Shown here: positions 4,604-62,898 of the stretch, one piece after another | How the letters are laid out: every line of letters starts with the position of its first letter | How positions within the stretch are numbered: the first letter of the stretch is position 1 | From: Chloroflexota bacterium | Lineage (GTDB): Bacteria; Chloroflexota; Anaerolineae; Anaerolineales; UBA11858 | NCBI GenBank assembly: GCA_018648225.1 | Contig: JABGRQ010000199.1 | Span: 6,606-70,605 of the forward strand | DNA length: 64,000 bases | Reading direction: 5' to 3' | Notes under the pieces: model-generated | Databases searched by the model: none | Told to the model about the DNA's origin: nothing | Seen by the model: only the letters and a program-made list of their open reading frames with translations | Made by a program: the position numbers and the translations under genes

Positions 4604-6636
4604 TTTTTTGCTAATTGATCTAATAAAAGCGCGACAGCCATCCAACCAGCCAGGCGAAACTGGATTCCAACCGGGGCGGCGTGACGCTCGATTTCAATAG
4701 GGTTGCCATGCCAGACGATGAACATCAGCGGGTATAAGCTCACCAAAAATACCGCCACAACCAGCCAGGCCGGGGAAAGGTTTCTTTTGCTGAAAAAATA
4801 GGCTCCCGCTCCAACACTCATCAGGAAAAAAAAGCCCCACATCACCCAGGCATCGCGTGGGTAAAAACGCGCCGTGAGGGTTTGCAGCCAAAGTGGAATG
4901 GTCGGCACGCCAAAACGCGGCAGATGGTATTCCAGATTGTCGCCGCTCAAAATTGAGGGAAGTTGCTGTAAAGGGGCGATCATCGAATCCAATGGATGGG
5001 TGATGAGGAATTTGGCATAGGTGGCGACACCATACTGGTTGATCCAGTTCATCGCGGCAGCCATTTGGGGATCATTCAACAGGTAGGGTTGATACTCGTG
5101 CCCGGGCATGGCACTCATCTTCAAGAGATTCTCGCTCATCGGCAACCCAGCAGCGATGAAATAATCCACTGCTTTGGCATCAGGCAAAATACGCAGGGCC
5201 AGCAAATCGGCCATGTGAATTTGCCACAGGTCACTGGCCCCAAAGGATACATTTTTAAGTACAAGCACGCCGAAAAAGAGCAAGAGATAGACCCAATAGA
5301 ATTTGCGATTCTGCCGAGGCACTTTGCCAAAAAGCCCGGCAATCGGGAACAAGAGCGCGCCGAAAACGGCAAAATATTGATTGCTCTCACGCGTGAAGCT
5401 ATACAAAATCGTCAGTAGCGCGGCCAGAAATACAAAAGCCACGCCTGCCTGGGGGGGTAACGGTTTCTTGGTAGCGGCGTTCCACCATAACCAGGCAGCA
5501 ATCAGCAAGGCGAAGATCGAAAAAGAGAGCGACTCGGAGAGTAGAAGACTCTCCCACAGGCTGACCTCCAAATTCAAGCTAAAGAACAGAATTATCCCAA
5601 AGGCCAGCGGACGGAGCCACGATTGACGCATTAGCAATGAAAAGACCAGGCCTAATGCCGCCCAAGAGAGAATTGAAAACCAGTATTGCGCATCCACGGT
5701 GTCGCGGATGACATTGGCATCCAGATAATTTGCCTGCGTCACGCCGGTAAGTTTGTAGAAAAGCGGCAGTGTGAAGGGGCGCGTTCCGGCCCAGAATTCG
5801 AGCGAGTTGAGCGGCTCGTCGGCGGTTTCGACATACCAGGCGGTATCCCGAAAAACGCGCTCCCCGCTGAATGTTGTATAGCTTAGTTTTTGGAAAGTAA
5901 AAACAGCGAAGATGGCAAGATAGAGTATGACCAACAGCGCCTTGACGGCGGCGGGATGCAGCCAACGCGTCTCAACGATGAATGCGAAGATAAATATTAG
6001 CACCCACAGCGCCAGGAAATAGAATCCCTTGACAAGCAGAATCCAACCCGAGGCCGCGTCCGTTTGTCCCAACACAATATCGGTGGTCACGCTCTGGGGA
6101 GCGGATAAATCAATCTCGGTCGGTTCTCCATCCCACAGCAGTGACAATTTCCCCGCGTCCACATTATGGCGCACGCTCAACACCACGCCGCCCGGCATCA
6201 TCCCGGAGAGATGCCAATCATCCGTAAGCTGGAACACATCCAGCGAGACGGGCGTACCATCCAGATATTTCACCTGACGAATTTCGACCGGGCCGCCGAA
6301 TGCAGTCATTTGCAGGCTGTGCTGCGCCGAAAGCGCGGGAATGGGCAGCGGGAAGAGACAGAGTAGCAGGACGGCAATCAAACCGCAGATGAACGCAGAT
6401 ACACGCAGATTTTTAAAACAGGTTGGGGTACCCCATTTCGTCCAAATAATAAATCCAAGAAAAATAAACGGCAACAGGATGGCGCTTTTAAGCAGGCCGC
6501 GCGGCGCGAAGTAACCGTATTCGTTGCCGAAGAATAGCGCACTGATCGTCAGCCAAACCGCTACCGAGAGCAGCAAATTAAGCCCCCAGACAGCCAATGA
6601 TTTCCTGGTCAAAGGTTCCCGATTATTAAACACCAA
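4564..6636 (-). CDS. polytopic membrane protein, GT-C-like (PMT_2/ArnT-like) putative glycosyltransferase
   Basis: 690 aa with many hydrophobic segments. Loop motif VETADEPLNSLEFWAGTRPFTLPLFYKL resembles the acidic loop plus (R/H)PPLY box of GT39/GT83-type enzymes. Start is TTG 6636 or GTG 6633. Confidence 0.5.
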   Translation of the reverse strand: MVFNNREPLTRKSLAVWGLNLLLSVAVWLTISALFFGNEYGYFAPRGLLKSAILLPFIFLGFIIWTKWGTPTCFKNLRVSAFICGLIAVLLLCLFPLPIPALSAQHSLQMTAFGGPVEIRQVKYLDGTPVSLDVFQLTDDWHLSGMMPGGVVLSVRHNVDAGKLSLLWDGEPTEIDLSAPQSVTTDIVLGQTDAASGWILLVKGFYFLALWVLIFIFAFIVETRWLHPAAVKALLVILYLAIFAVFTFQKLSYTTFSGERVFRDTAWYVETADEPLNSLEFWAGTRPFTLPLFYKLTGVTQANYLDANVIRDTVDAQYWFSILSWAALGLVFSLLMRQSWLRPLAFGIILFFSLNLEVSLWESLLLSESLSFSIFALLIAAWLWWNAATKKPLPPQAGVAFVFLAALLTILYSFTRESNQYFAVFGALLFPIAGLFGKVPRQNRKFYWVYLLLFFGVLVLKNVSFGASDLWQIHMADLLALRILPDAKAVDYFIAAGLPMSENLLKMSAMPGHEYQPYLLNDPQMAAAMNWINQYGVATYAKFLITHPLDSMIAPLQQLPSILSGDNLEYHLPRFGVPTIPLWLQTLTARFYPRDAWVMWGFFFLMSVGAGAYFFSKRNLSPAWLVVAVFLVSLYPLMFIVWHGNPIEIERHAAPVGIQFRLAGWMAVALLLDQLAKNNHRDTKFTELNQ
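6383..6414. repeat. U-family repeat arm embedded in frame in a CDS
   Basis: CCGCAGATGAACGCAGATACACGCAGATTTTT (three CGCAGAT units) encodes FKNLRVSAFICG. Confidence 0.7.
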
Positions 6637-8698: not shown

Positions 8699-8710
8699 TT
8701 TCTATTCGCA

Positions 8711-8774
8711 ACCGCAGATGCACGCCGATAAACGCAGATAAAAAACATCCGCGTGCATCTGCGTTCATCAGTGG
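8711..8774. repeat. U-family composite hairpin (CGCAGAT units), copy 1
   Basis: ACCGCAGATGCACGCCGATAAACGCAGAT AAAAAAC ATCCGCGTGCATCTGCGTTCATCAGTGG. Confidence 0.85.
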
Positions 8775-8775
8775 T

Positions 8776-9675
8776 TCACTTTACCGGAATCCAGGTTTGT
8801 TTGGGAAGCAATTTCGTCAACACTCGCCGCCAGAGCATCCCAACACGGCGTTTGAAACCAACATTGCGCTCGCCCCTCACCCCTGGCCCTCGCGACAGCA
8901 TACCCGAAGGGTGCTCTCCCGAGGCGAGAGGGGAAGCGACTACGGTAAGATAAAGCGGCAGCAGCCTCGAGCGCGGCTGGCCGTGTTTTTTCAGCGCAAT
9001 AACTTCGTACCCGGCTTGAGTCAGAATCTGTCGCAGGGTGTGGGCGCTGAAGCTGGTCATGTGGGCAATTTCGAAGCTCTCATGGGCGTAGAGATTGGGC
9101 ACTTCAATCAAGATCACCCCCGAGGGAATCAGCACGTCTCTGCGCAGTTTTGCAAGATACGCTACCGGGTCGGGGATATGTTCCAATACGTGCGCCATGC
9201 TAATCAGGTCGAAAGGCTTTTCATCTGCATCCCTCATATCAGAGAGATCGGCGAATACCGTCAGGCCGTTTTTATGGGCGTAGGCACGATAAGCTTCGCC
9301 CGGCTCAATCCCCGCGGCGACGCAGTTGAAGGCTTCTGCAAAACGCCCTAACAAAATTCCAGAGGATGCACCAATATCGAGGTAACGCCGTGGGGCAATC
9401 TTTTGCGCGACGAGGAAGGCCAGTAGCCAGTCGGCGCGGCCATTTTGTACGACCAGGTCTTTCTGCGTAGGGCCTTCAGCGCCCTGGTAAACCTGACGAT
9501 ATTCGCGAGCGTAAAACGTATCCAACTCGGCCGCGGTCATACGCGGTGACTGGAATACCAGCCCGCAATTGGCACAAAGGCGGTTTTCCACCACCTGTTC
9601 TCTAAACTGGCGTTGGTCAAAAAGTTGGCTTTTCTCGTGCTCACAAAGCGGGCAATTCGTTATGTTTTCAGGCAT
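8776..9675 (-). CDS. class I SAM-dependent methyltransferase with N-terminal Cys4 ribbon
   Basis: CPLCEH...CANCGLVFQSPR, then YLDIGASSGILL (motif I) and FDLISMAHVLEHI. Confidence 0.8.
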   Translation of the reverse strand: MPENITNCPLCEHEKSQLFDQRQFREQVVENRLCANCGLVFQSPRMTAAELDTFYAREYRQVYQGAEGPTQKDLVVQNGRADWLLAFLVAQKIAPRRYLDIGASSGILLGRFAEAFNCVAAGIEPGEAYRAYAHKNGLTVFADLSDMRDADEKPFDLISMAHVLEHIPDPVAYLAKLRRDVLIPSGVILIEVPNLYAHESFEIAHMTSFSAHTLRQILTQAGYEVIALKKHGQPRSRLLPLYLTVVASPLASGEHPSGMLSRGPGVRGERNVGFKRRVGMLWRRVLTKLLPKQTWIPVK

Positions 9676-13662: not shown

Positions 13663-13779
13663 ATCACGAATGAATACGAATAACACCAATGACACGAATT
13701 TGATGAACACAGATTTTTTATCGCTTCATCCGATTTATCTGTGGCTATTTGCCAAATGCACGGTAGAAAAATTCGTGAT
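13663..13779. repeat. nested composite repeat (CACGAAT arms enclosing a U-like hairpin)
   Basis: Outer ATCACGAAT...ATTCGTGAT; inner GATGAACACAGATTTTTTATCGCTTCATCCGATTTATCTGTGG. Confidence 0.7.
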
Positions 13780-13795
13780 AAAAGTCCATAAATTT

Positions 13796-21138: not shown

Positions 21139-22008
21139 TCAATCTTTCCGAATCACGACCAACGGATACTGCCCGTTTTCGCCAAAGTAACGCGGGGCGC
21201 GCGCTTCGAGCCAGAATAACAGGCGCAGTAATATGCGCCCACCAAAACCGGAATGTACAAAAGTACGCAAGTGTTTTACACTGACGGCGCGCCAGACGAA
21301 GATGTCAAACGCCAGGATTGGAGTAAGCTGGTCTTTGAGCCACTCAGCATCGTATTTGCGTACGAAGGTGCTTTTGCGCTGTTCACTCTCCGGAGTTGGG
21401 GAGGGTTTCGCCGGGTGTAGCGGTGCCTGAATGCCAAAGATGCGCCGTAGAATGCCAATAATGCGATTCATCCAGCGCATGGGTTTGACTAATAACCGCG
21501 GGATGCGCGCATCCCCCCAGCCATTGACCACCACCCCTGTCGAATCAACCTTCAGGACACGGTACAACTCCTGATAAGCAGGGATGTGCTCATCCTGCGG
21601 CAGGTGATGCAGCGTGTGCAGCGAGACCAGTCCATCGAACACATCGTTGGCAAAGGGTAAATGAGCCACATCAGCAACCACGCACAGGGCATGGCCTTCG
21701 CCAGCGCGCTTGCGAGCATCTTTCAGGGCGACGTGCGAAATATCGGCACAGACACGAAAATCATAGCCCTGTGAGTAGGTCAAATATTCCGGGTACTGGA
21801 TCGGGCCAGAACCAGCATCGAGCAAAAAATGCCCTGTCGGTTTGAGATGCCGATTGACGCGTAAATGACAGCGATGAATATAATCACGCGAGACCGGGCG
21901 CAAGTCTTCGTAGCGCGCATTTTGATACACACCCTCGCCGACTTCCTGCCACCCCACCTGATCGTAGAATTCGCGAACTTCTTGTTTTATGTCTGCTTCC
22001 GTACTCAT
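21139..22008 (-). CDS. class I SAM-dependent methyltransferase
   Basis: LLDAGSGPIQY (motif I), FDGLVSLHTLHHL. ATG 22008 (MSTEAD) has AGGA 8 nt upstream and lies 8 nt past the upstream stop. Confidence 0.75.
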   Translation of the reverse strand: MSTEADIKQEVREFYDQVGWQEVGEGVYQNARYEDLRPVSRDYIHRCHLRVNRHLKPTGHFLLDAGSGPIQYPEYLTYSQGYDFRVCADISHVALKDARKRAGEGHALCVVADVAHLPFANDVFDGLVSLHTLHHLPQDEHIPAYQELYRVLKVDSTGVVVNGWGDARIPRLLVKPMRWMNRIIGILRRIFGIQAPLHPAKPSPTPESEQRKSTFVRKYDAEWLKDQLTPILAFDIFVWRAVSVKHLRTFVHSGFGGRILLRLLFWLEARAPRYFGENGQYPLVVIRKD

Positions 22009-29197: not shown

Positions 29198-29254
29198 GCC
29201 GAAAAAAGGGGTGTGCGTGGGGGCTGCGCCCCCACGCACACCCCTTTTTTCGGC
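29198..29254. terminator. bidirectional intrinsic-terminator-like perfect palindrome
   Basis: GCCGAAAAAAGGGGTGTGCGTGGGGGC TGC GCCCCCACGCACACCCCTTTTTTCGGC. 27-bp perfect stem, 3-nt loop, with A6/T6 tracts flanking the GC core on both strands. Confidence 0.75.
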
Positions 29255-33672: not shown

Positions 33673-33688
33673 AGTATCCAAATTTTTA

Positions 33689-33750
33689 ACCACAGATGAA
33701 CGCAAATGAACGCTGATTTTTTATCCGCGTTTATCGGCGTTCATCTGCGG
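33689..33750. repeat. U-family composite hairpin, copy 2
   Basis: ACCACAGATGAACGCAAATGAACGCTGAT TTTTT ATCCGCGTTTATCGGCGTTCATCTGCGG. Confidence 0.85.
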
Positions 33751-33758
33751 TTTCCTTC

Positions 33759-35711: not shown

Positions 35712-35725
35712 TTTATAAGATTCTC

Positions 35726-35806
35726 AACGCAAGGACGCAAAGGGACGCAGGCGCAGAGATTTGCTTTATTTTCCTTTGCGTCTCTGCAGCTTTGCGCCTT
35801 TGCGTT
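35726..35806. repeat. Q-family composite hairpin (CGCAAAG units), copy 1
   Basis: AACGCAAGGACGCAAAGGGACGCAGGCGCAGAG - loop - CCTTTGCGTCTCTGCAGCTTTGCGCCTTTGCGTT. Confidence 0.85.
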
Positions 35807-42868: not shown

Positions 42869-45076
42869 TTACGGATAATACGAACAATCGCCAATCTCTT
42901 CACGCGGGACAAAGAACCAGACATGCGTCTTGTCTTTCGAGTATTTAGGTTTATAGTAACAGTACAACGGTTCTGTAACCCACTGTACCCAGGTATCGTT
43001 CTCAGCATCCCATTGCTCTTCTTCGCGAGAGTAACGGATGCGCTGCGGATCAGTGATAATCAGGCCGAAGCGCTGCTCGGCGAGATCGCGGTAAAACGGC
43101 ATCAAATATTCCATATCTTGCGCCAGAGCGCGATCCATGACCTGTTTTTTTTCATATTCCGGCACCAGAGGAATATCCACCACGCCGAAGGTAATCAGTT
43201 GACGTTGATCCATAAAGAGGACTTCGCCGCCTTGCGCGACCACATGCTCGGATTCAGTGATGAGCAAGTCGATGGTGTGATCGACATACTGCTGCTCGGG
43301 GAGTTCTAGCGGCATGGCATCCATGAGGGGTAAGAAGGCGGGAATCAAAGCCAGGAATAAAAAGAGTATCTTGACTCCCGAGGTTTGTTCCTGCAAATTC
43401 GCGAGAATCTGTCCGCCGCCACGTTCCCACGCCGCCGCGGCAACAAAGACCAGACTAACAAGGAATATATCCAGGTTGTGCAGGTTGCTGCCACCGCCAA
43501 TTTTAACGCTAATAATCAGCCCGATGCCCAAAAAGCCCAGCAACCCGCCAGCTACGGCCAGTTTTTGCCAGATGTTGAGCTGCCAATTTGGACGCGGATC
43601 AACGCGGACACTTGCGCCTGCGGTGTCAAGTGCAGGTGTGAACGCGGATTTTTTGTCATGTATCCTGCGTTTATCTGTGTTTATCTGTGGTTCTTTATTT
43701 TGTGACTGTATTGCCAAGTAAATCAATAAAATGACAAGCGGCAAAACGGCTAATGCCAATTCTAAAACGATGCCCAACCCGTTGGTGGGGTTGGGCCACA
43801 GGCGCTCCCAGAGCAAGGGCTGATCAGTGAGAAAGGAATTGCTGCCGCTGCTGACGGCTTCGACCGTGTCGGCGGTATCGGTGAAAATTGCCGCGGGGGC
43901 AGGCATCGGCAAGTTGACCTGCACCCCACCCTGAGCTGCGTTCGCCAATCCCAGTTGTCGCGAGATGCGCTCCCAGCCGCGTTTAATTCCCACGCCGCCA
44001 AATAATCCCGCCAAACCATATAATCCAACCTGCAGCCATGAACGCCAGGGCATACGCTCGCCGGGGGATGTTTCATCATCGAGCAAGGCTACCAACACTG
44101 CCCAAACTGCCGGGGCAATCATCCAGGTCAGGCGGCTGAGTTGAGCATAATATCCGGCCAGATAAATCAGGGGCAGGGCAATCCATAACGCTTTGCGGCG
44201 CGCTCCGGCGACGAGAATGGCGCTCAGAACGAGGGGGGTGTAAATGGGGCCTTGATAGAGGAACAGGAAGAGCCACACGCCCGCCCAGGACCAATCTTTG
44301 CGGAGGGCGGGGAGCGCGCGCAACGCTAACCAACCCAGAAACAGATACGGCACAGTGAAAACCAACGCCGACCACAGACGCACGCCTTCAAGCGTCACGC
44401 CGCCAAATAAGAAAGGCAACCCCCACAATGACTGCCGCCCAATATCAATATACGCTTCGAAACGCTGATTGAGCGGATAATCGTAGAAGCGTCGCCCGTA
44501 AAGCCAGGAATAATCCCAGATGCGGTTGCCCTCCGACCAGGTTAATGAGAGGGGGTAATCAACCACGGTGACGAACTCGACAGCGAAGACAATCACCGCG
44601 CCCACAGCGACAAAACTTAGCATCAAAGGCCGCCAACGGATCAGATGACGCGGATGACGTGTGGCAAATAGCGCCATCGCCAGCCCTACAGCTATCAGGA
44701 AGGCCAGCCGAAAGGCCGCACCGGTGATTTTATAGCCAAGCGGGGTGTAGAGAAAAATTTTAGCGGGCAGAAAGGCCAGCGCGGCGAAAAACAGCCAGCG
44801 CAGGGGGCCAAGTTTGTCACGGCTGCGCGCCAGTGCCACCACAAGGTCATCGGTTTTCTGTGGCAGCCATAAACTTGTCAGACCCAACGCCACCGCCAAC
44901 GTGCCAAAGAGCATCATCCCGGCCAGCGGCAGGCCCCAGGTGATGGTGAATTTGCCGATCCAGTTCTGCGTGCCTTCAACGACTGCGTAGAAATCGCTCC
45001 CGGCAAAAACCAGCAAGAGCAACACGGCAAACGTAACCAGTAAACGCGCCATCAACGCGCGATCAAATGGCTTCAT
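42869..45076 (-). CDS. polytopic membrane protein with C-terminal soluble domain (paralog B1), putative membrane glycosyltransferase
   Basis: 735 aa. LSLTWSEGNRIWDY loop, SVKIGGGSNLHNLD motif, and a C-terminal GGEVLFMDQRQLITFG...RFGLIITDP domain shared with 58792-60852. Confidence 0.45.
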   Translation of the reverse strand: MKPFDRALMARLLVTFAVLLLLVFAGSDFYAVVEGTQNWIGKFTITWGLPLAGMMLFGTLAVALGLTSLWLPQKTDDLVVALARSRDKLGPLRWLFFAALAFLPAKIFLYTPLGYKITGAAFRLAFLIAVGLAMALFATRHPRHLIRWRPLMLSFVAVGAVIVFAVEFVTVVDYPLSLTWSEGNRIWDYSWLYGRRFYDYPLNQRFEAYIDIGRQSLWGLPFLFGGVTLEGVRLWSALVFTVPYLFLGWLALRALPALRKDWSWAGVWLFLFLYQGPIYTPLVLSAILVAGARRKALWIALPLIYLAGYYAQLSRLTWMIAPAVWAVLVALLDDETSPGERMPWRSWLQVGLYGLAGLFGGVGIKRGWERISRQLGLANAAQGGVQVNLPMPAPAAIFTDTADTVEAVSSGSNSFLTDQPLLWERLWPNPTNGLGIVLELALAVLPLVILLIYLAIQSQNKEPQINTDKRRIHDKKSAFTPALDTAGASVRVDPRPNWQLNIWQKLAVAGGLLGFLGIGLIISVKIGGGSNLHNLDIFLVSLVFVAAAAWERGGGQILANLQEQTSGVKILFLFLALIPAFLPLMDAMPLELPEQQYVDHTIDLLITESEHVVAQGGEVLFMDQRQLITFGVVDIPLVPEYEKKQVMDRALAQDMEYLMPFYRDLAEQRFGLIITDPQRIRYSREEEQWDAENDTWVQWVTEPLYCYYKPKYSKDKTHVWFFVPREEIGDCSYYP
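43590..43690. repeat. complete U-family element in frame inside CDS
   Basis: Minus strand: CCACAGATAAACACAGATAAACGCAGGAT...AAAAAATCCGCGTTCAC...GTCCGCGTTGATCCGCGTCC. Encodes PQINTDKRRIHDKKSAFTPALDTAGASVRVDPRP. Confidence 0.8.
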
Positions 45077-57482: not shown

Positions 57483-58688
57483 TTACAACTCCGAATTCCT
57501 GAATGCCAGATCGCCAATTAGCTCCATATATTGCGCCGCAATTTGGCTCCAGGCGTAGTGTGCTTCCACGCGCTGACGGCCCGCAGCGCCCATACGCTTA
57601 CATCGTTCAGGGTCTACGAGCAGTTGCGCCAAAGCCTGCTGCAAAGCATCCACGTCTTCTGGTGGTATCAGCAGGCCAGTCTCGCCATTCACAACCAGTT
57701 CTTCGTTGCCAGCAATGTGCGAGGCGATCACGGGCAGGCCGCAGGCCATCGCTTCCAGAACGGCGTTGGGCATACCTTCGTGCCGCGAGGGAAAGACAAA
57801 GAGATTGGACTGGTGATATTCTTCCAACAGGGCTGAGCCATCCAGCCAGTTAGCAAAACGCACACGCGCGGTGATTTGATTTTTCTCGGCAAAAGACTCC
57901 AGCCGCGGACGTTGGGGACCATCGCCGACCAGACAGAGTTCCCAGGGATGTGCGTGTAACTCGGCCAGCGCCTTGAAGAGCAAATCCAGCCCTTTTTGAT
58001 AGACCAGCCGCCCGACGAAAAGCAGGCGCGGCGGTGCATCCTGAGACTTCCGAAGTCTTTGCAATTCCATTTCCGCCGGTAATTCTCTTGTTAAAACTTC
58101 GGAAGTCTTAGCCGGAGCATATTTCTGTAAATCTACCCCGTTGGGGATGACGCACAAAGGTACGTCGGCGTCAAACGCACGCGCCAACTCGGCCAGGCCG
58201 GCGCTGTTGGCGACAATCATCTGCGCCCGCCGCCAGATCATGCGAATTAGCGGAGCCGCCAAACGATGGTAACGGGCAAAATCATAGGGGCGAAAACCTG
58301 GCACATCGCCGCCACGCAACGAGACGATATACGGAACCCCAGCCAGCACGTTTGCCCCCCAGGCCGCCAATCCGCTGGGGATACCGAAGAAAGCCACAAT
58401 CACATCCGGGCGGCTCTTTGGAAGCAGGCTTAAGGTTCGGAGGGTACTGACCAGCATAAAAACAATTTGCTCTACTGCGCTGGAACGATCTAATTTGCGA
58501 CGGAAAGCCCAAATGCGCTGAATCTGCACCCCGCCTCGTCGTTCCGTGCGCGGTAAATCGGCATAGGCCGCGGTCAGCACCTGCACATCATGTCCCGCAG
58601 CGACCAATTCCCGCGCCAAAAATTCACTGGCATTGCCTGCACCGCCACCGATGGGAGGATATTCGCTGTTGATAATTAGAATTCGCAT
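57483..58688 (-). CDS. family 4 (GT-B) glycosyltransferase carrying an in-frame repeat in the interdomain linker
   Basis: MRILIINSEYPPIGGGAGN...PSRHEGMPNAVLEAMACGLPVIAS. Confidence 0.8.
   Translation of the reverse strand: MRILIINSEYPPIGGGAGNASEFLARELVAAGHDVQVLTAAYADLPRTERRGGVQIQRIWAFRRKLDRSSAVEQIVFMLVSTLRTLSLLPKSRPDVIVAFFGIPSGLAAWGANVLAGVPYIVSLRGGDVPGFRPYDFARYHRLAAPLIRMIWRRAQMIVANSAGLAELARAFDADVPLCVIPNGVDLQKYAPAKTSEVLTRELPAEMELQRLRKSQDAPPRLLFVGRLVYQKGLDLLFKALAELHAHPWELCLVGDGPQRPRLESFAEKNQITARVRFANWLDGSALLEEYHQSNLFVFPSRHEGMPNAVLEAMACGLPVIASHIAGNEELVVNGETGLLIPPEDVDALQQALAQLLVDPERCKRMGAAGRQRVEAHYAWSQIAAQYMELIGDLAFRNSEL
58043..58111. repeat. V-family element (GACTTCCGAAGTC palindromes) in frame inside CDS
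   Basis: GAGACTTCCGAAGTCTT - 38 nt - AAACTTCGGAAGTCTTAG. Encodes KTSEVLTRELPAEMELQRLRKSQ. Confidence 0.8.
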
Positions 58689-58791: not shown

Positions 58792-60852
58792 TTACGGCAA
58801 TATTTGCCGGGCTTCATCCAAGGCCGGGCAGTTATCCACATTGGAGCGCGGATAAAGGATTTGCAAATGCACCTGGCGCAAGGTCAGGCGCGGCTCGTAA
58901 TAGCACAGCAAGGGCCGCGAGACCAACTGCACCCAGAGATTATGTTCCTCGACCCAGGCTTCTTCAGTGGGGTCTTTGTAGTTCTCTAGCACCTGATCGG
59001 TGATAATGGCCACAAAGCGTTGATTTTGCACGTCAGCATAGAAAGCGTTCAAATAATCAGCATTGCGCGACATAACCATTTCCATAAAAAAGACTTTTTC
59101 GTACTTCGACACAAGCGGCAGGTCAATCTGCTCATCGAAATAGAGCAAGTGGCGTTGCGAGATCAACAAAACCTCACCGCCATCGCGTGCGGCGTAATTG
59201 ATTTGCTGATGCACCGCATCCAGCGAGGCATTAACCACATTTGAAGCAGGCAAGTCAAACGGCGCGCCGGATTTTAGCGTCAACAAGACCGGTACGACTA
59301 CCAAAGAAAGCAGCAGCGGCCAGGTTGCAGATTTCCAAAGTCTTACCGAAGTGATTTCCAACGCAGATTTCTTTGTAGAGACTTCGGAAGTCTCCGCGGT
59401 AAAACGCCCAAAGAAGAAATACCCGCCCAATACCATCCACAAGGCCAGGTAAGCATCCAGGTTGTGCAAGTTGCTGCCGCCGCCAATTTTCACGCTGACG
59501 ATTAGACCGCCCGCGAATAAGGCCAACACCAACGCCAGCAACCCCAGCATACGGATTCCCGCCTGCCGACCGCGGCGCGCTAATAACAACCACAACACTG
59601 GCAACGAAACCAGCAAGGCATTCAGCACCAACCCCAGTGCATAGGTTTCATTCGGCCACAGACGGTACCATAATAAATCTGATGAAAAACTGGATGTAAA
59701 TTTTTCGGCATCATTGCCCGACACAACGACATACGCGGCTTGGGTTATAAAGGCCGTCACCGTACCCACCAGCCCCCAAACAGCAGGCGGCAGCAGATAA
59801 CGCCACCAGGGTATTTCATTCTGCGGCGCTTCGAGCAAATAGAGCATCGCTGCCAGCATCGCCGGAACCGGGAACCAATTCAGACGGCTGACTCCTGCCC
59901 ATACCGAAGCCAGCACGACCACCAGCAAATTGCGCCAGAATTTTTTGGCATCAAAGCCTGCAAAAACGATCATCAACGGTATGGCCAGATGATAATACAC
60001 CGGCCCCTGGAACAGGAATAGATAACCCCAAAAAACTATCATCCACAACACAAGCGGATTTTTCAAGCGTAAACGGCGGGCAAAGAGCCAGGCCGCCCCC
60101 AAAGTGAAAAACACCCACAAGACAACCTGCCACAGGCGATGTCCCCAAAGCGGAATGCCATCGATCAAAAAGGGCAACGATTGCATCAGATAGCGCGTGG
60201 GGTGCAGCACGGAAGGCGGCAGTGCCATGCCATACACTTTTTCGGCAAAAAACAGCGACGCATAATAAAAACGGCTGGTTTCCGACCAACTCAGGGAAAA
60301 AGGATAAGCGCTGATGCTCAGCCCGAAGGTGGCGATCTGGTAACTGAAGGCAATCAATAATCCGGCGACCAGCGCCGCGGCGCGCAGTTTCAAACGCGCA
60401 TCGGCTACGCGCAAAGCAAGCGCGCCCATCAATGTCAGGATCAGATATACCAAAAGCCGTGGGAAAATATCGGCGAGCAGATCGCTCATCAGGGCCAGCA
60501 CCAGGGCTGGGTACAGCGCAATGACGAAAATAATACCCCCGAAGCCCAGCCAGCGCAGGCGGCGCACACAACGAGGGAAACGCACCCACTTGACGAAGAG
60601 ACGCCCCCCGAGGGAAGTCCGCATAAATGCGGCCAAACTTAGGGTTAAAACTCCAAGCCCGTAAAGGCCGATCACCAACCACCAGCGTTGCGCCCGCAGA
60701 GTAAAAATCGCACCAAGGGCCAGGAGCTGCTGCGAAATCTGGTATGCCGATCCGCTAAATAATCCAGCAAAAACGATTAACAACCACGTTAGATCATTAC
60801 GCGGTTGGCGGGATTCAAAAATCGCTTCCAAACGGGGTTCAGGCGAGGTCAT
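58792..60852 (-). CDS. polytopic membrane protein with C-terminal soluble domain (paralog B2)
   Basis: ~686 aa from ATG 60852 (MTSPEPRL). FSLSWSETSRFYY, SVKIGGGSNLHNLD, and GGEVLLISQRHLLYF...RFVAIITDQ, as in 42869-45076. Confidence 0.45.
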   Translation of the reverse strand: MTSPEPRLEAIFESRQPRNDLTWLLIVFAGLFSGSAYQISQQLLALGAIFTLRAQRWWLVIGLYGLGVLTLSLAAFMRTSLGGRLFVKWVRFPRCVRRLRWLGFGGIIFVIALYPALVLALMSDLLADIFPRLLVYLILTLMGALALRVADARLKLRAAALVAGLLIAFSYQIATFGLSISAYPFSLSWSETSRFYYASLFFAEKVYGMALPPSVLHPTRYLMQSLPFLIDGIPLWGHRLWQVVLWVFFTLGAAWLFARRLRLKNPLVLWMIVFWGYLFLFQGPVYYHLAIPLMIVFAGFDAKKFWRNLLVVVLASVWAGVSRLNWFPVPAMLAAMLYLLEAPQNEIPWWRYLLPPAVWGLVGTVTAFITQAAYVVVSGNDAEKFTSSFSSDLLWYRLWPNETYALGLVLNALLVSLPVLWLLLARRGRQAGIRMLGLLALVLALFAGGLIVSVKIGGGSNLHNLDAYLALWMVLGGYFFFGRFTAETSEVSTKKSALEITSVRLWKSATWPLLLSLVVVPVLLTLKSGAPFDLPASNVVNASLDAVHQQINYAARDGGEVLLISQRHLLYFDEQIDLPLVSKYEKVFFMEMVMSRNADYLNAFYADVQNQRFVAIITDQVLENYKDPTEEAWVEEHNLWVQLVSRPLLCYYEPRLTLRQVHLQILYPRSNVDNCPALDEARQILP
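59330..59394. repeat. V-family element in frame inside CDS
   Basis: GATTTCCAAAGTCTTACCGAAGTGATTTCC...GAGACTTCGGAAGTCTC. Encodes ETSEVSTKKSALEITSVRLWKS. Confidence 0.75.
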
Positions 60853-62819: not shown

Positions 62820-62898
62820 CAGACCTCCGAGATTTTCACAAAACCGGTCTGCAAAGATTTTTTCGCTGAAATCTCGGAGGTCTTTCAGCGAAATCTTC
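62820..62898. repeat. V-family composite hairpin, intergenic copy
   Basis: CAGACCTCCGAGATTT ... AAATCTCGGAGGTCT plus overlapping GCTGAAA/TTTCAGC. Confidence 0.8.

Follow-up and report, generated by a model that had tools for sequence, protein, structure and literature searches.

The locus and its in-gene element

We analysed a 64,000-nucleotide stretch of contig JABGRQ010000199.1 (assembly GCA_018648225.1, forward-strand positions 6,606 to 70,605), hereafter the window, from an uncultured seawater member of the Anaerolineae. The gene B1 of this window encodes a membrane protein, and within its open reading frame (ORF) lies a hairpin element that belongs to a family of intergenic hairpins, the U type, of the same genome. 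An earlier interpretation made from the DNA letters alone (the sequence-only reading) had proposed that an intergenic-type hairpin is embedded in frame in a working gene, and this was borne out by presence and absence of the segment among orthologs, purifying selection on the gene, and RNA contigs that run through the element. The minus strand of 43590-43690 also reads as quoted there, inside the 735-aa ORF; the element as we delimit it (43590-43692, minus strand) leaves the frame intact and encodes ...PQINTDKRRIHDKKSAFTPALDTAGASVRVDPRP.... The host gene and the parts of the element are as follows.

42869..45076, minus strand: host gene B1, a 735-aa ORF encoding a polytopic membrane protein with a soluble C-terminal domain
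43586..43702, minus strand: net gain of 39 codons compared with orthologs that lack the insert (residues 459-497, QNKEPQINTDKRRIHDKKSAFTPALDTAGASVRVDPRPN), from protein, DNA and codon alignments
43662..43692, minus strand: left arm of the U-type element, in sense AACCACAGATAA ACACAGATAA ACGCAGGAT, read directly and aligned to U copies
43650..43661, minus strand: loop of 12 nt, ACATGACAAAAA
43639..43649, minus strand: first unit of the right arm, ATCCGCGTTCA
43609..43638, minus strand: nested 30-nt module that interrupts the right arm, CACCTGCACTTGACACCGCAGGCGCAAGTG, with a mini-hairpin of its own
43590..43608, minus strand: units 2-3 of the right arm, TCCGCGTTGA TCCGCGTCC

The loop and the first A of the right arm together form a run of six adenines (A6) that is also found in the intergenic copies; the loop as a whole measures 12 nt and not 5-6. 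The loop-proximal unit of the right arm is also ATCCGCGT in both intergenic U copies. Given that the nested module is 30 nt long, a multiple of three, the frame is kept across it. This module occurs once in the window, and neither the U copies nor the orthologous inserts contain it. A 34-nt near-copy of the nested block (43608-43641), with 3 mismatches, was found on other contigs of the same metagenomes (runs X1, X6, X13, X19, and X20), where it occupies the loop of a hairpin built from other units, with the flanks AAATGCAGAATGCAGAAGGATAA and TGAACATTCTGCATTCCGCATTCATCATTC. The 30-34-nt block is possibly a small module that settles in hairpins.

The hairpin of the B1 element is degraded and folds weakly in the mRNA sense (-25.1 kcal/mol, z score -1.9). 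The antisense folds 17.6 kcal/mol more strongly (-42.7 kcal/mol, z -4.3), because the A·C mismatches of the sense strand become G·U pairs in the antisense. Scored as a palindrome at the DNA level, the element does not reach the threshold of our scan and ranks under the window's 18 strong hairpins. Of the insert's three sense frames a single one is open, and the insert-specific tryptic peptide of B1 is SAFTPALDTAGASVR.

Kinship with intergenic hairpins

Both intergenic U copies to which the sequence-only reading had pointed (8711 and 33689) exist and are real hairpins, and a half copy was detected in addition.

8710..8776, plus strand: intergenic U-type hairpin, reference copy (RNA fold -28.7 kcal/mol, z -5.4)
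33688..33752, plus strand: intergenic U-type hairpin, reference copy (RNA fold -37.8 kcal/mol, z -9.3), directly upstream of the start codon of the next minus-strand gene
6381..6424, plus strand: half copy of the U-type element, left arm only, three units (nhmmer E 0.002-0.005 against the U copies)

The U-type layout consists of three 10-nt units ACGCNNATRA, an A/T-rich loop of 5-6 nt, and three inverted units, and the intergenic copies start with AACC and end with GGTT. Once the 30-nt block is taken out, the B1 element aligns end to end with both copies, with 55/67 identical positions to the 8711 copy and 53/65 to the 33688 copy (82%), an alignment score that was reached by 0/2000 shuffles. 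In an nhmmer search of the whole window on both strands, the U copies were the top non-self matches of the block-free element (E 1.5e-5 and 8.9e-5), and they remained at the top when the block was kept (E 0.013 and 0.042). The B1 element thus belongs to the U-type hairpin family of its own genome. It departs from the type in its right end (GTCC instead of GGTT), its 12-nt loop, and one interrupted arm; the element had previously been called complete, which is true only approximately, the right arm being interrupted by 30 nt.

The intergenic copies contain stop codons in all six frames (33688 copy) or in three of six (8711 copy), and in this six-frame check they shared no family-wide encoded peptide. 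The open frame in B1 accordingly reflects which insertions survive and is not a property of the U family.

Presence and absence among orthologs

The insertion was assessed with an alignment of the 19 closest B1 proteins, together with DNA and codon alignments. In 16 of these 19 proteins, a three-residue loop (consensus T-K-R-W) connects two hydrophobic helices upstream of SVKIGGGSNLHNLD; one of the insert-free proteins, P0004, is 86% identical to the window protein. Extra codons occur at one single place only, namely 39 in the window protein (P0001/P0121), 37 in P0002, and ~46 in P0003/P0123, where P0002 (locus L001) represents a metagenome-assembled genome (MAG) similar to NIOZ-UU35 (GCA_014382605.1) and P0003 (locus L005) a second insert-bearing relative. 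The site is therefore polymorphic for presence and absence, with the insert in three lineages and the empty state in L003 and 15 others. The alignment of paralogs and orthologs that had been suggested as a check returned a clean presence/absence pattern at exactly the insert loop. Contrary to what had been supposed, the insert is not private to the window genome, given that the L001 and L005 lineages have a corresponding segment between the same junctions.

In the paralog B2 (58792..60852), the B1 insert site is occupied by a short loop, ARRGRQAGIR. B2 had been described as shorter here by roughly 25 residues; it is shorter, and the difference amounts to ~38 residues. B2, which had been taken as a clean comparator, contains a repeat-like segment at another place (59329-59397). 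Most of the 512 B1 homologs, at ~696 aa, likewise have the short loop. Since both the 16 orthologs and B2 have the short loop, the long loop is the derived state.

Residues at the junctions are common to the three inserts (S-Q/E on the left, N-W on the right), where the empty orthologs have K-R-W. The unrooted quartet ((window, L001), (L005, L003)) was favored by 102 sites versus 28 and 26 for its alternatives. The three options for placing the root among these four close lineages received 34, 41, and 30 derived sites, values near enough to one another to allow one gain, dated to after the empty lineage had branched off, which we consider the most likely history. We also looked for a target-site duplication: A-rich direct repeats flank the L001 copy (GAAAAAAGG and GAAAAAAAA), at junctions too diverged for a call, and an N-W/K-R motif is seemingly doubled in P0003 and P0002, again at strongly diverged junctions.

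Integrity, expression and evolution of the host gene

B1 is a working gene under strong purifying selection. The ratio of nonsynonymous to synonymous divergence (dN/dS, or omega) was 0.10-0.12 against four orthologs, in insert-bearing and insert-free pairs alike, and the ORF with its insert was identical in strain variants from independent assemblies. The gene was present in 20 public seawater runs. In the eight DNA and RNA runs that we examined, every contig crossing the site has the insert and none has a joint that skips it; alleles lacking the insert or the 30-nt module were not found in these eight metagenome and metatranscriptome runs at contig level, a level that hides rare variants, including rare spliced forms. 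Metatranscriptome contigs of two runs cover 43557-44031 and 43558-44008 with 0 differences. Given that these contigs cross the element with no joint, the element is present in RNA and is not removed from it. An intron or intein is likewise not indicated, with RNA contigs crossing the element unspliced and a 39-residue insert that has no domain match.

In the AlphaFold model of B1, residues 460-496 form a coil (pLDDT <50) between helices 430-460 and 502-526, so that the topology prediction called for by the sequence-only reading yields a disordered coil between two predicted transmembrane helices. K and R abound in the insert, and the ancestral T-K-R-W loop is also basic. By the positive-inside rule, the loop would probably lie on the cytoplasmic side.

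Comparison of the L001 and L005 inserts gave dN 0.24, dS 0.36, and omega ~0.7, against an omega of 0.12 in the rest of the gene, which suggests that the insert evolves almost neutrally; its dS, taken over only 28 codons, compares with 0.86 for the rest of the gene. The stems of the L001 and L005 hairpins contain 6 mismatches each, mostly at different positions. Compensatory evolution was considered for these stems and set aside, as 11 one-sided changes stand against 2 two-sided ones, a pattern of decay that looks neutral.

The B1 family is uncharacterised and conserved in glycan-synthesis clusters of Chloroflexota. Its 512 homologs at E<=1e-10 all come from Anaerolineae/Chloroflexota MAGs and have a typical length of ~696 aa, and genome and metagenome scans with B1 yielded only lineages already found by the protein search (the species representatives in the genome scan did not include the window's own genome). 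B1 and B2 are paralogs with 29% identity. Members of their family have ~690 aa, many transmembrane helices, a soluble C-terminal domain, and the invariant motifs WSEGNR and SVKIGGGSNLHNLD, and their neighbours are PMT_2-like and GT2/GT4 genes. Neither B1 nor B2 matched Pfam, NCBIfam, or PDB sequences. A Foldseek search with the moderate-quality B1 model returned nothing significant; its top match, STT3 of OST (E 0.18, TM 0.27), would be a faint, non-significant hint of a GT-C fold.

Inserts of sister lineages and probable later remodelling

The insert cores of L001 and L005 are 84-nt symmetric palindromes with units of ~9 nt (ACGCGAAT and ATTCGCGT), built of ACGCNNAT/ATNNGCGT units that we refer to as the CGAAT flavour. 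In each, 29/35 positions are paired (-33 to -37 kcal/mol, z -4.1 and -3.6), and as mRNA the two copies fold at -32 and -29 kcal/mol. The inserts of L001 and L005 are collinear and 77% identical, while the surrounding gene is 80% identical. Collinearity and an identity matching that of the gene indicate that these are the same insertion, inherited vertically. By parsimony, the CGAAT flavour represents the older state, as it occurs both in the sister L001 and in the more distant L005.

The window insert does not follow this pattern. While B1 of the window is 87.5% identical to that of its sister L001 at the nucleotide level, the window insert is only ~70% identical to the sister's orthologous insert, with many gaps, and 82% identical to the U copies of its own genome. 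Its U-like sequence and poor match to the sister inserts indicate that the window copy was reshaped after the split from L001; this likely happened by slippage of tandem units, by ectopic conversion with a U copy as donor, or by re-insertion. The outermost unit pair of the window element aligns with the flanking sequence of the L005 and L001 inserts. The insert peptides of the sister lineages are unrelated in sequence.

The sequence-only reading had in effect a U copy jumping into B1. The family likeness stands, and the CGAAT flavour of the sisters calls for something more, either conversion, remodelling, or re-insertion at a later time. That reading would have been refuted by an equivalent segment in homologs from genomes without U repeats, and here the outcome is borderline: the ~45 kb of DNA available from close relatives contained no intergenic U-type copy, and the equivalent segments of these relatives are 84-nt hairpins, which points to an older insertion and not to a native loop.

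Hairpins with changed or mixed units were also observed in intergenic spacers. The spacer between the methyltransferase and amine-oxidase genes holds the U-type hairpin 33688-33752 in the window and a CACGGAGA/CACAGAGA-type hairpin in a sister species (L024:5868-5965); the flanking methyltransferase is 93% identical, and the position of the spacer hairpin is conserved while its unit sequence is not. In the composite intergenic element 13665-13780, CGAAT-type units (CACGAATGAATACGAATAACACCAATGACACGAAT ... AATTCGTGAT) flank a degenerate U-type hairpin (GAACACAGATtttttATCGCTTCATCCGATTTATCTGTGG), from which it follows that hairpins nest in hairpins and that both unit flavours coexist in the window genome. 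The spacer with differing hairpins, this nesting, and the near-copy of the 30-nt block would fit a fast turnover of such elements.

In-gene hairpins in GT4 and B2

Two further hairpins of the window lie within genes, one in a GT4 glycosyltransferase gene and one in the paralog B2.

58044..58108, minus strand: second, younger in-frame hairpin, in the GT4 glycosyltransferase gene 57483..58688; encodes KTSEVLTRELPAEMELQRLRKS
59329..59397, minus strand: related element in B2, a degenerate copy of the GT4 element family; encodes AETSEVSTKKSALEITSVRLWKS

All 16 bp in the stem of the GT4 hairpin are perfectly paired (RNA fold -28.7 kcal/mol, z -4.2). The GT4 protein of the window has 401 aa versus ~378 aa in 9/9 closest orthologs (one of them 86% identical), all of which lack the segment, so that the insert, ~20 extra residues in the linker preceding the C-terminal Rossmann domain, is confined to the window lineage. 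The filled site has 75 nt of DNA where the empty one has 15 nt, which is a replacement and not a duplication. The best relative of the GT4 element is the B2 copy (nhmmer E 9e-6, with a full-length DNA alignment through the loop). The B2 element is also present in the B2 ortholog of NIOZ-UU35, where its right arm matches the GT4 copy at every position, and it is likely the source or a sibling of the GT4 copy. This suggests that a B2-type hairpin was copied across a distance of 1.3 kb into the neighbouring GT4 gene. A weaker intergenic relative of the GT4 element (62821-62883) is conserved in NIOZ-UU35, at the orthologous spacer. Both in-gene copies are crossed by RNA contigs. The loop in B2 varies in length among B2 homologs, and the B2 segment is a candidate insertion only. 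We also considered that the arms of the GT4 hairpin were built round a retained target, given that its loop resembles the replaced 15 nt, and rejected this because the B2 copy has the same loop sequence.

In the older in-gene copies (43590-43692, 59320-59405, and the L001 and L005 inserts), the sense strand folds 4 to 18 kcal/mol worse than the antisense, with mismatches that read A·C on the former and G·U on the latter, while the young GT4 copy is symmetric. Selection against mRNA structure was entertained as an explanation and dropped, since the pattern comprises ~2 independent events with duplicated units and is not statistically meaningful.

Interpretation and rival explanations

We consider it probable that a palindromic repeat, selfish or neutral, inserted at a tolerant position in the working gene B1. 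An element of ~110-140 nt would have inserted into the codons of the T-K-R-W loop, between two transmembrane helices, in the common ancestor of three present lineages. Given the purifying selection on B1, only an insertion that was in frame and free of stop codons would have survived. From that time on, translation would have run through the insert and given B1 an additional loop of ~39 residues, disordered, basic, and hydrophilic. Peptide and hairpin would then have drifted almost neutrally, and the window copy would later have been reshaped to the U flavour of its own genome and have gained the nested 30-nt module. Nothing points to a function for the B1 insert.

Several observations weigh against this account. 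Simple vertical descent predicts that the window copy should be nearer to the sister's insert than to its own U copies, and the opposite was found. A search with nhmmer gave no match between the L001 or L005 inserts and either the window insert or the U copies, and the U-family membership of these two inserts consists in a shared architecture and the ACGCNNAT unit pattern. A neighbour-joining tree of the proteins joins P0003 with the empty P0004 in 79% of bootstraps, a pairing that, if right, would need a precise loss or two separate gains. The B1 element has no identified target-site duplication or terminal signature, so that its mobility is judged from presence/absence and the similarity of copies; no transposase was identified, and none was searched for. 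The metatranscriptome contigs may include contaminating DNA and carry no strand information, and translation of the insert is something that we infer. Finally, the structural model of B1 is of moderate quality (mean pLDDT 61.9, pTM 0.49).

One rival account is that two or more insertions hit the same hot spot independently, with the U-type copy of the window arriving later, in the same loop codons or as a replacement of an older hairpin, and not descending from the element of L001 and L005. The likeness of the window copy to its own U copies, its gapped alignment to the sister insert despite closely similar host genes, and the failure of nhmmer to recover it from the L001 and L005 inserts all favor such a history, as does the bootstrap value for P0003 and P0004. 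Nested hairpins (element 13665-13780 and the 34-nt module) suggest that hairpins may attract insertions, and the spacer orthologous to the 33688 U copy holds another unit type in the sister species. However, the junction residues common to the three inserts and the alignment of the outermost window unit pair with the flanks of the L005 and L001 inserts speak against it, no remnant of a second arm pair is visible in the window, and slippage can turn over tandem units without a new insertion. Independent insertions are in our judgment an unlikely explanation, if one to be taken seriously. That the insert has been kept for a function, either as an mRNA hairpin that slows ribosomes or regulates expression or as a basic loop with a role in the protein, appears improbable. 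It is true that the insert has stayed in frame through a divergence of dS 0.5-0.9, that good mRNA folds persist in the L001 and L005 copies, and that the dS of the insert lies below that of the rest of the gene, although over few codons. The ribosome-pausing hairpin that had been envisaged finds no support in the window copy, whose sense fold is weak and well below its antisense fold; moreover, one-sided changes prevail over compensatory ones in the sister stems, the insert omega is ~0.7 and its peptide almost wholly different between sister lineages, and most orthologs work without it.

Expansion of a native loop by local slippage or duplication, with a likeness to intergenic repeats that arose by chance, was also weighed, given that the A-rich, Lys/Arg-coding stretch at the site is prone to slippage and that other loops of the protein family vary in length. 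We regard this as very improbable in view of the full-length 82% identity to two intergenic copies (0/2000 shuffles, E 1e-5), the inverted-repeat architecture in all three lineages, and the invariant short loop of 16 orthologs. At contig level, there is next to no chance that B1 is a pseudogene, one of the outcomes that the sequence-only reading had named as refuting it, or that we are dealing with an assembly artefact or an insert removed from RNA: several assemblies and runs, independent of one another, contain the same intact ORF, dN/dS is ~0.1, and RNA contigs span the element with no joint.

Beyond the insertion of a selfish or neutral repeat into B1, it is conceivable, though we hold it as a tentative idea only, that the hairpins of this clade are no inert relics and form an actively homogenising system, in which hairpin-directed copying or conversion repeatedly rewrites and seeds short coding segments of conserved genes in a free-living bacterium. 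Pointers in this direction are the in-frame switch of B1 from CGAAT to U flavour, the orthologous spacer with different units, and the apparent copying from B2 to GT4, and candidate processes include template switching, ectopic gene conversion, and insertion targeted to hairpin loops.

Comparison with known elements

The closest parallel is offered by the Rickettsia palindromic elements (RPE; Ogata et al., 2000, Science 290:347; Ogata et al., 2002, Genome Res 12:808; summarised in PMC10969869). Like these, the elements described here are dispersed palindromic repeats of ~100-150 nt that occur both between genes and within ORFs; in-gene copies are in frame, in conserved working genes, and at tolerant protein sites; presence and absence vary between related species; and several genes per genome are affected, here B1, GT4, and probably B2 within 64 kb. 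The host, however, is a free-living marine member of the Chloroflexota and not an obligate intracellular alphaproteobacterium, and there is no sequence relation to RPE-1 to RPE-10, a separation that was made without RPE sequences and is based on the lack of an Rfam match and on close homologs that all come from Anaerolineae/Chloroflexota. Unlike in RPE, the arms consist of tandem 7-10-nt units with a fast turnover of sequence, no peptide or open frame is conserved across copies, and an in-gene copy changed its unit flavour between sister lineages. The B1 element is a new instance of a known, RPE-like phenomenon in a new phylum, with an unusual architecture and later remodelling.

[quoted passage not shown] Similarly to our elements, these are short, non-autonomous repeats with inverted symmetry, mostly intergenic and sometimes in genes, with presence/absence polymorphism. 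In contrast to MITEs, we found neither terminal inverted repeats distinct from the body nor a clear target-site duplication, the whole element being one long imperfect hairpin of periodic units; no cognate transposase turned up, in a window and loci that were never searched for one. REP and BIME elements (repetitive extragenic palindromes and bacterial interspersed mosaic elements), which are associated with RAYT transposases, measure 20-40 nt and have a conserved GTAG or CGTC tag at one end (PMC3733652). They too are abundant small palindromes in the spacers of co-directional operons that likely form RNA or DNA hairpins lacking the T-tract tail of a terminator, but the elements here are 65-103 nt long, the two intergenic U copies have no GTAG or CGTC at their ends, and REPs are extragenic by definition. 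Our literature search returned nothing that ties Chloroflexi or Anaerolineae to such elements.

In-frame palindromic repeats in working genes have so far been treated as a peculiarity of Rickettsia. In the 64 kb studied here, from an uncultured, free-living marine member of the Chloroflexota, the same outcome is met two or three times and involves a previously undescribed repeat family. This shows that the lengthening of protein loops by selfish hairpin DNA is not confined to reduced intracellular genomes and can affect conserved membrane proteins and glycosyltransferases. While the finding reveals no new molecular machine, it warns annotators that lineage-specific inserts of 20-45 residues in such MAGs may be repeat-derived, and the availability of one old and one young dated example permits study of how inserts decay, are remodelled, and are copied.

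Hairpins across the window

The window contains 18 strong DNA hairpins, versus 0 in shuffled sequences, in addition to weaker ones such as 35720-35806; example positions are 554, 1042, 3487, 15775, 27001, 35720, 40063, 47388, 50670, 55412, 58724, 61793, and 62821. With few exceptions they occupy short spacers within a single long glycan-synthesis cluster whose genes are co-directional (minus strand). Their arms consist of tandem 7-10-nt units of several flavours, with the families CACGAAGA/CACAAAGA, CGCAAAGG, GTTGAAG, GATGAAT, ACGCNNAT, and AGACYTCCGAR. Similar elements were found in close relatives and not in more distant orthologous loci, which instead have G+C-rich hairpins of the GAAAAAAGGGGTGTG... 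type. The hairpin class is real and clade-specific. No Rfam family was matched at gathering thresholds anywhere in the window.

The unit-type hairpins were considered as transcription terminators, and this was rejected: a consensus scan called none of them between 26000 and 45500, and its total of 34 calls showed no excess over shuffles (26 +/- 5). Their orientation with respect to transcription is not fixed. They could act in mRNA processing or stability, or be purely selfish.

A separate class of G+C-rich perfect palindromes, ..GAAAAAAGGGGTGTGCG...CGCACACCCCTTTTTTC.., recurs across distant relatives, with sites at 29198-29254 in the window and at L006:31-83, L009:5407-5457, 6281-6337, and 21313-21369, and L015:4573-4626. 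With A/T runs on both sides, these palindromes look like bidirectional terminators.

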